A stretch of 33,208 nucleotides of DNA, taken from IMG/VR virus record IMGVR_UViG_2579778919_000008; one strand, given 5' to 3'. This DNA is from a virus. Taxonomy: Duplodnaviria; Heunggongvirae; Uroviricota; Caudoviricetes. A program made the position numbers and the translations under genes. Positions 16,437 through 16,804 of this stretch are shown here, in pieces. Below the pieces are notes generated by a model. That model was not told where the DNA came from and searched no databases. It was given only the letters and a program-made list of their open reading frames with translations. Within the stretch, counting starts at the first letter, position 1. Each line of letters begins with the position of its first letter.

Positions 16437-16472
16437 GGTGTCGACGATACGGCACCACTGCGGGGAGGTTCA

Positions 16473-16490
16473 GATGAAGAGGTTCAGTGG
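16473..16490 (-). promoter_or_regulatory. Copy of conserved 18-bp motif (plus strand GATGAAGAGGTTCAGTGG, 16/18 identical), candidate late promoter upstream of I
   Basis: Located 37-54 nt upstream of the I start codon; adjacent partial repeat GAGGTTCAG. Confidence 0.4.
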
Positions 16491-16804
16491 ATTATCGCTG
16501 AGGATCGCTTTGGTTGTCGGCTTATCGGGTTTAGCAGACTGACGCCTGCGGGCAAAGTATCGGTCAGTGAACCACTCAGCAACCTTTATAACCAGCCCCC
16601 CTAAGATGCCAATGAAAACCCACTGCTGCGGGGTGAAATAATCAAGGAAAGCTTTGAATGTGTCCAGTTGCCCGCTCCCGTAATGCATTTATGAGCCCAG
16701 GCCTTTTTAAACCGCTTTTAAAAACGTCTGAACACCTCTTTGGCGAATCACTCTAGCACAATCAGACTGAACGCGTCACAGCGCGTTACAGGACGAATTT
16801 GCCC

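Follow-up and report, generated by a model that had tools for sequence, protein, structure and literature searches.

A composite G–I spacer in a Mu-like prophage, with a conserved phased T/A array as candidate right arm of a central gyrase site

Introduction

In phage Mu, the strong gyrase site (SGS) lies between genes G and I, with the cut at 17879/17880 of the 36,717-bp genome according to the Mu record, which also places a terminator and the late promoter P_I in this spacer. A review summarizes that SGS activity requires the right arm, the importance of which has been ascribed to phased anisotropic bending signals that favour wrapping of the DNA on the C-terminal domain of GyrA. The same review relates that most of the candidate gyrase sites tested did not promote Mu replication, and that only the site of an E. 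coli O157:H7 Sakai prophage could replace the Mu SGS, so that positional homologues need not be strong sites.

The SGS of Mu and those of Mu-like prophages are the subject of Pato, Howe and Higgins (1990), Oram and Pato (2004) and Oram et al. (2006); central gyrase sites in Mu-like prophages were already under study in Oram and Pato (2004). Whether gyrase sites are conserved across transposable phages is described as unclear in the literature. Cargo at the G–I position has already been noted for phage D3112.

Here, we describe the G–I spacer of a Mu-like prophage from a viral sequence record. An earlier note on this DNA had likened the spacer to the corresponding region of Mu, stating, in agreement with the Mu record, that Mu has its gyrase site between G and I.

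Results

Setting of the G–I spacer

The window (the whole 33,208-bp stretch of DNA analysed, IMG/VR record IMGVR_UViG_2579778919_000008) belongs to the prophage of a Mu-like myovirus and is read along the minus strand. The gene order on this strand runs from transposase A and B, at the high-coordinate end, through terminase, portal, F, G, I, major head protein T, sheath and tape measure to baseplate. The spacer between G and I measures 368 bp (16437–16804) and is flanked by minus-strand genes identified by Pfam, which bears out the region of about 370 bp described in the earlier note; the features listed there were all found in place on checking the sequence. The spacer and its boundaries contain the following features, in the order in which they are transcribed.

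16805–17347, minus strand: G-like virion morphogenesis gene (Pfam PF05069, Phage_tail_S, 106 bits), the upstream boundary of the spacer
16770–16787, minus strand: inverted repeat in the sequence, AACGCG-N6-CGCGTT (loop tcacag)
16742–16758, minus strand: clade-conserved block TGCTAGAGTGATTCGCC (TGnTAGAGT), kept in the window, L001, L004–L006, L026, L041, L057 and L108
16689–16754, minus strand: array of phased T/A tracts with the core CGTTTTTAAAAGCGGTTTAAAAA at 16726–16704, candidate right arm of a strong gyrase site
16470–16688, minus strand: 72-codon accessory ORF for a one-helix membrane protein, with a PF04971 match, related to TMD2 and the C-tail of class II (P21 S) holins
16473–16490, minus strand: P_I activator site (the 18-mer of the earlier note, 16/18 bases), with the core dyad TGAACCTCTTCA at 16486–16475
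16444–16449, minus strand: −10-like hexamer TATCGT of P_I, 23 nt downstream of the motif and 7 nt upstream of the I ATG
15321–16436, minus strand: I-like protease/scaffold gene (Pfam PF10123, Mu-like_Pro, 310 bits), the downstream boundary of the spacer

[quoted passage not shown] These parts are mostly those expected of a Mu-like phage, and a gyrase role for the spacer is a plausible hypothesis.

Of the annotated relatives, those nearest to the window are a prophage in E. coli FDAARGOS_1303 (L001, NZ_CP070045.1) and Klebsiella phage ST405-OXA48phi1.1. The L001 prophage, which is bounded by a split ydbL gene, is 93% identical to the window in the spacer and 94% across the late genes, and its counterpart of G carries the PGAP label 'phage virion morphogenesis protein'. 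The early region (window 25200–32700) is only ~71–86% identical to L001, compared with 94% for the late region, and the two prophages are mosaic relative to each other. The tail-fibre end (window 1–2600) is unlike that of the sister prophage and has opposite-strand ORFs at 1–645 and 639–1088 on the plus strand; it looks like an invertible G-segment-like region running off the end of the window.

Both prophage ends lie outside the window, and the position of the spacer was therefore read from L001, in which the site is at ~52% of 34.2 kb. Across Mu, the FDAARGOS_1303 prophage, Klebsiella phage ST405-OXA48phi1.1 and D3112, the site falls at ~49–52% of genome length. The earlier note had put the spacer near the prophage midpoint, which agrees with the sister prophage. 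The location expected of a Mu-type SGS, between G and I near the prophage centre, is found by way of this relative, and supports the window G–I region as the positional equivalent of the Mu SGS/P_I spacer.

The phased T/A array

The array spans ~65 bp and is built of T/A tracts separated by G/C-rich spacers, in a repeating pattern of 10.5–11 bp. Its core has the form T5A4-N4-T3A5, with TpA steps 11 bp apart, and such a double tract is rare in the window (shuffle mean 0.1). The array was found in 10/10 of the first relatives aligned. Its core CGTTTTTAAAAGCGGTTTAAAAA is nearly invariant where the G proteins are only 55–88% identical, making the array the best-conserved part of the spacer, the remainder of which drifts.

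A pattern scan of IMG/VR for the core returned at least 120 loci; among the matches listed, Mu-like head genes accompany 84, and 76 are followed by a co-oriented I homologue. These 76 Mu-like loci include high-GC phages and extend to an I identity of ~25%. In the IMG/VR loci, G ends 86–114 bp upstream of the array. Alternation of A/T and G/C with a 10.5-bp period extends over roughly −35 to +30 relative to the first TpA step (39 representatives, <90% identity), and many members contain three or four TTTAAA units spaced 10–11 bp apart.

A blastn search of the spacer against phage records revealed no similarity to any of them, Mu included. Direct alignment to the Mu SGS was therefore not possible, and the link with Mu was found only via intermediate relatives (L060, L114 and L128), through which the array was aligned to the Mu right arm. 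[quoted passage not shown] By inspection, the cleavage core of the window has no resemblance to Mu at the aligned −42 position, and nucleotide similarity to the core of the Mu SGS is accordingly not among the properties of this site. The extended phased bending/flexibility signals of a Mu-type right arm are present, as seen in the 11-bp TpA spacing, the 10.5-bp period and the Mu alignment, and the periodicity of the array agrees with that of the periodic arm of the published gyrase consensus.

Alignment against the Mu G–I sequence, the check proposed in the earlier note, therefore gave a divided answer, with nothing from blastn or at the core and a match between the array and the right arm via intermediates. 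[quoted passage not shown] A reading of the array as the counterpart of the Mu middle promoter Pm was also considered, and was rejected since the array shows no resemblance to Pm.

Comparison with the gyrase motif

Candidate gyrase sites were scored using a proxy of the published Topo-Seq gyrase motif, consisting of a strand-symmetric 130-bp matrix fitted by regression to 610 coordinates with their published scores, together with 274 kb of the W3110 genome. Published scoring takes the higher value of the two strands, whereas the proxy is strand-symmetric; agreement between the two scores in block cross-validation was r = 0.875, with an RMSE of 1.4. The published score itself correlates only ~0.2 with cleavage strength. 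An asymmetric matrix model was abandoned because it overfitted. The held-out Mu SGS had a proxy score of 10.3–10.5 (published score 14.3), ranking 2nd of ~36,600 positions in Mu and at the 99.8th percentile of local maxima.

The best proxy scores in the window spacer were 5.56, inside the ORF, and 5.42, with position 0 at 16747 on the plus strand, inside block TGCTAGAGTGATTCGCC. These scores rank 341–392 of 33,079 window positions, compared with 2nd for the Mu SGS, and the spacer therefore does not contain an outstanding 130-bp motif match of the Mu type. As the proxy correlates with the published score at r = 0.875, this shortfall is only a soft failure. The highest proxy scores in the window (9.6–10.2) occur at 12977, 11829, 22682, 21364 and 17490, inside structural genes and outside the G–I spacer.

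The position aligned to 16747 has the best proxy score near the array in 8/10 relatives. In the family, the best proxy site falls at −31 or at −40 to −43 in 31 of the 33 members. The median of these best sites is at the 72nd percentile of local maxima; eight of the 33 exceed the 90th percentile, and the window lineage stands at the 58th. Proxy scores of 9.4–11 are reached by the members most like Mu (L060, L081, L047 and L086). Arm-only scoring and S/W register matching recovered the true Mu cleavage register (42), and, when applied to the window, gave candidate registers at −31, −41/−42 and −52/−53, all in helical phase with the array. The predicted motif matches give support at the level of the family without singling out the window lineage.

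The proposal in the earlier note of a candidate strong gyrase site in this spacer is favoured by position, conservation and arm periodicity, and is disfavoured by the middling proxy score and the dissimilar core. The grounds offered for it have changed, in that the note passed over the phased array and leaned instead on the 6-bp inverted repeat, which is better read as a degenerate hairpin following G, as described below.

Sequences between G and the array

The inverted repeat at 16770–16787, with its 6-bp arms, is present as the earlier note described it, but on its own it lies within chance expectation, and its RNA fold is unexceptional (z = −0.75). Where the window has this repeat, many of its relatives have A-tract/stem/T-tract hairpins with differing stems. 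The window repeat is a degenerate copy of this terminator-like post-G hairpin, a copy that has no T run. Since the T run has been lost in the window clade, late transcription from Plys may read into the ORF. A search of Rfam matched no family in the spacer, and an interpretation of the window in terms of RNA structure was dropped, as neither the T/A element (z = −1.3) nor the post-G hairpin (z = −0.75) folds exceptionally.

The clade-conserved block TGCTAGAGTGATTCGCC lies upstream of the array. An extended −10-like element, TGnTAnnnT, is conserved 30–45 bp upstream of the array in most relatives, and Mu has TAAAAT immediately 5′ of its cleavage site. This block might belong to the candidate gyrase site, as its G-segment/cleavage core, or might serve as an extended −10 promoter.

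The late promoter P_I

The 18-mer CCACTGAACCCCTTCACC occurs in three minus-strand copies, at 24647–24630, 4645–4628 and 16490–16473, the last with two mismatches, compared with a chance expectation of 0.02. A 9-nt partial repeat, CTGAACCTC, adjoins the motif (16487–16479 and 16473–16465). Both the third copy (16/18) and the adjacent partial repeat had been pointed out in the earlier note. The motif copies lie upstream of the lys (endolysin), I and gp46-like baseplate genes, in parallel with Plys, P_I and P_P of Mu, and share a core consisting of the dyad TGAA-N4-TTCA. Each copy is followed 23 nt downstream by a −10-like hexamer (16434–16490, 4590–4645 and 24568–24647, minus strand). The window also encodes a Mor-family activator at 25155–25625 (PF08765, 35.1 bits compared with a threshold of 24.9). 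Mor/C-dependent late promoters are expected to have a shared motif ahead of several late operons, with a weak −35 and a −10 at fixed spacing, and an activator of the Mor/C family encoded by the phage; the locus agrees with this in its three motif copies, its constant −10 spacing and its Mor-family gene. The third motif copy is most probably the late promoter P_I, which is found at this place in Mu as well.

Examination of 43 unique upstream regions of I homologues showed CTGAAC/G at −50 to −52 from the ATG in 40, a TAnnnT hexamer ending 6–7 nt before the ATG in 39, and a Shine–Dalgarno-like sequence in one. The gp46-like gene has the same geometry, with its ATG 6–7 nt after the hexamer and no Shine–Dalgarno sequence. 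With a −10 hexamer so close to the ATG and no Shine–Dalgarno sequence, the I mRNA would be leaderless; most simply, transcription would start at or next to the ATG of I.

The window promoter resembles P_I of Mu in its position upstream of I, in a motif common to the lys and baseplate late promoters, and in the Mor-family activator encoded upstream. The C-dependent site of Mu Pmom, AATAACCACACTCAACCC, is resembled by AATAAACCACTGAACCCC in the window. In contrast to Mu, only one Mor/C-family gene is detectable in the window phage, and the core of its motif is the TGAA-N4-TTCA dyad. A further difference is that P_I of Mu is recorded as giving a leader that includes a ribosome-binding site, whereas the window has no Shine–Dalgarno sequence and a leaderless mRNA is implied.

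The 72-codon holin-related ORF

The ORF at 16470–16688 matches Pfam PF04971 (P21 holin S) with 34.5 bits (threshold 26), over profile positions 20–62 of 64, corresponding to TMD2 and the C-tail. The exact protein belongs to a cluster named 'phage holin' by NCBI, and was seen in 193 blocks of the assembly collection, in each of which it stands between Phage_Mu_F/G and the Mu-like protease. A tblastn search revealed only weak homologues (35–40% identity), all of them S holins in Stx/933W/P21-type lysis cassettes. An exhaustive profile search showed that the short-form family is small, with 13 representatives at E ≤ 1e-3, some of them short, with one helix and the start M-E-T-F-K-A-F-L-D-Y-F, and the others two-helix holins of the usual S21-like type.

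The ORF is absent from most relatives, in which the spacer is 206–233 bp long. The distance from the array to I in IMG/VR is 107–159 bp in 55 loci and 282–324 bp in 14. In diverged copies of the ORF (L041, L044 and L057, 43–45% identity), the frame is intact and a good ribosome-binding site precedes the GTG or ATG start. Over 42 core codons, pS is ~0.8 and pN is ~0.27, indicating purifying selection on the ORF. The allele in L138 is cut short after 25 core codons, possibly through a frameshift or an assembly error. PGAP calls a hypothetical protein on the opposite strand in NZ_CP070045.1 (L001 20111–20344), and this call was rejected, because it is the holin-like frame that is conserved and selected. 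Two sigma-70-like sites inside the ORF were dropped, as they are not conserved in relatives.

The ATG of the window ORF at 16688 is not preceded by a Shine–Dalgarno sequence, as the earlier note had observed in finding no convincing ribosome-binding site for this 72-codon frame. The position of the ancestral start is now a CTG (16667–16665), behind a GGGAG Shine–Dalgarno sequence at 16679–16675, and in the window lineage an in-frame ATG lies seven codons upstream of this CTG. With an ATG that lacks a Shine–Dalgarno sequence and a CTG at the ancestral start, translation of the window ORF is probably weak. The L001 allele differs from that of the window by indels of +9 and +4 bp, and a 4-bp indel between the two alters the C-tail. 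Lys and Glu occur within the hydrophobic segment. The earlier note had called the ORF doubtful, a judgement that does not survive its conservation, the selection on it, a PF04971 score above threshold and the ribosome-binding sites of the diverged copies. By these sequence comparisons the ORF is a real gene, present as an accessory insertion.

The likeness of the product to class II holins, and to S21 in particular, consists in the above-threshold HMM match and in the pattern LD..(S/T)P.QW..IG.LG.LV......T(N/D).YF, followed by a basic C-tail. It differs from S21 in the absence of TMD1, as seen in alignment with the two-TMD members P0017–P0019, leaving a single, partly polar hydrophobic segment in place of the two TMDs of a class II holin. 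It differs also in location, since the gene lies between head genes, ~7 kb from the endolysin, rather than in a lysis cassette; in all of the contexts read, it is between G and I. The lysis cassette of the window phage is found at the following position.

23666–24570, minus strand: lysis cassette, with a GH19 endolysin at 23926–24570, then an 87-aa DUF2644 protein

The GH19 endolysin has no N-terminal membrane or SAR segment and would thus need a large-hole holin. The DUF2644 protein directly after it has two hydrophobic segments in its 87 aa and is probably the main holin of the phage. Since the lysis cassette looks complete without the ORF, we treated the ORF as accessory cargo.

The ORF might instead encode a working pinholin or antiholin that sets the timing of lysis, rather than an accessory protein of unspecified role. 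Its place in the Pfam P21-holin family would fit such a function, as would its weak homologues, all S holins in lysis cassettes, and its probable inclusion on the same late transcript as the endolysin. Truncation work has shown that TMD2 of S21 alone can form pores, but only transient ones. The gene is, however, missing from most relatives and its product from the window has no TMD1, while the endolysin is of a kind that needs large holes and is adjoined by the two-helix DUF2644 protein. The glycine zipper of S21 (G40, S44 and G48) is not conserved across the short-form family. We therefore regard a role in lysis timing as unlikely, and continue to treat the ORF as an accessory gene.

The G–I spacer of D3112

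The G–I spacer of D3112 contains a phased array, GCGTTAACCCCGTTAGAACCCCGTTAGAAATCG, at 52% of the genome, with the same periodic pattern and C4 instead of G4 spacers. Retention of the periodicity with C4 spacers fits a structural reading of the array better than base-specific recognition. In D3112 (L142), acrF2 and neighbouring small genes occupy the G–I spacer (1928–2575), followed by the array (2649–2681) and then by the late-motif-like GTTGAACCCCTTCC. Compared with the acr/aca locus of D3112/JBD-type phages, the window has its cargo downstream of the array, whereas that of D3112 is upstream; the D3112 cargo is anti-CRISPR, and that of the window is a small membrane protein, not an Acr. The G–I spacer looks like a shared hot spot for cargo in the two phages.

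Discussion

The site in the window resembles the Mu SGS in lying between G and I near the prophage centre and in having a phased T/A run to the right of the presumed cleavage region, alignable to the Mu right arm. It differs in that neither the cleavage core nor the left arm shows detectable similarity, and in the post-G hairpin, which is left of the array in the window and right of it in Mu. The proxy motif score is ordinary in the window, whereas that of the Mu SGS is near the top of the Mu genome. Weighing these points, we lean slightly towards the composite reading of the spacer as a whole, with the candidate gyrase site included.

Under the composite reading, the periodic DNA of the array would wrap easily around a GyrA C-terminal domain. 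Gyrase would be bound just upstream of the array, with cleavage somewhere in 16750–16772, and could supercoil processively from the prophage centre, which would help bring the prophage ends into synapsis for replicative transposition. A small accessory membrane-protein gene derived from a class II (P21 S) holin would have been gained by one lineage downstream of the array; it is probably transcribed as the last part of the lys-to-G late operon, with weak translation. The ORF ends at P_I, where the dyad would serve as the site for a single Mor/C-family activator, followed by the −10 hexamer and transcription from the ATG of I.

The array could alternatively bind, or be bent by, some other protein, whether a phage regulator or a nucleoid protein of the host (IHF, Fis or H-NS), and act on transcription at the G/I operon boundary instead of serving gyrase. 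Direct repeats of GGTTTAAA-like units at 11-bp spacing are typical of binding to one helix face, the extended −10-like TGnTAnnnT element lies 30–45 bp upstream of the array in most relatives, and the proxy gyrase score of the window lineage is unremarkable. Where the ORF is inserted, however, the distance between the array and P_I grows from ~130 to ~290–320 bp with both elements retained, and such a variable distance argues against a geometry-dependent upstream promoter element. The exchange of C4 for G4 spacers in D3112 with the periodicity kept suggests readout of shape rather than of bases, the experimentally defined right arm of Mu aligns with the array, and the array does not resemble the Mor site at Mu Pm. 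Taken together, we consider a protein-binding site of this kind rather unlikely.

Another view would assign the spacer no special site at all, but only a terminator remnant, a moron-type accessory gene and P_I. The array would then be kept through shared ancestry, or as an AT-rich sequence that unwinds or accompanies a terminator, and would play no part in transposition. The failure of most tested gyrase sites in Mu replication, the uncertainty in the literature over conservation in transposable phages and the middling motif score are all compatible with this. The core is, however, kept where I identity is ~25–35% and in high-GC genomes in which the rest of the spacer is unalignable, and neutral descent cannot explain an array retained in such distant relatives; nor is an RNA function suggested by the fold of the array element (z = −1.3, not significant) or by Rfam, which gave no match. 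We judge this view to be improbable, and return to the array as the candidate right arm of a gyrase site.

A broader proposal, which we put forward tentatively as one possibility, is that the array marks a central gyrase site throughout the family, in enterobacterial Mu-like myoviruses and high-GC proteobacterial relatives and, in degenerate form, in D3112, and that its surroundings might be a cargo hot spot promoted by gyrase, with the holin-like gene here and anti-CRISPR genes in D3112-type phages.

Work on the central strong gyrase site, which enables the two ends of Mu to meet within the chromosome, has been confined to Mu and a few prophages. A short, recognizable and widely conserved array offers a concrete sequence with which to ask whether central gyrase sites are general in transposable phages, and could also show whether the G–I spot attracts accessory genes. 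The implied leaderless I mRNA and the short-form holin relative would be smaller additions to the biology of Mu-like phages.
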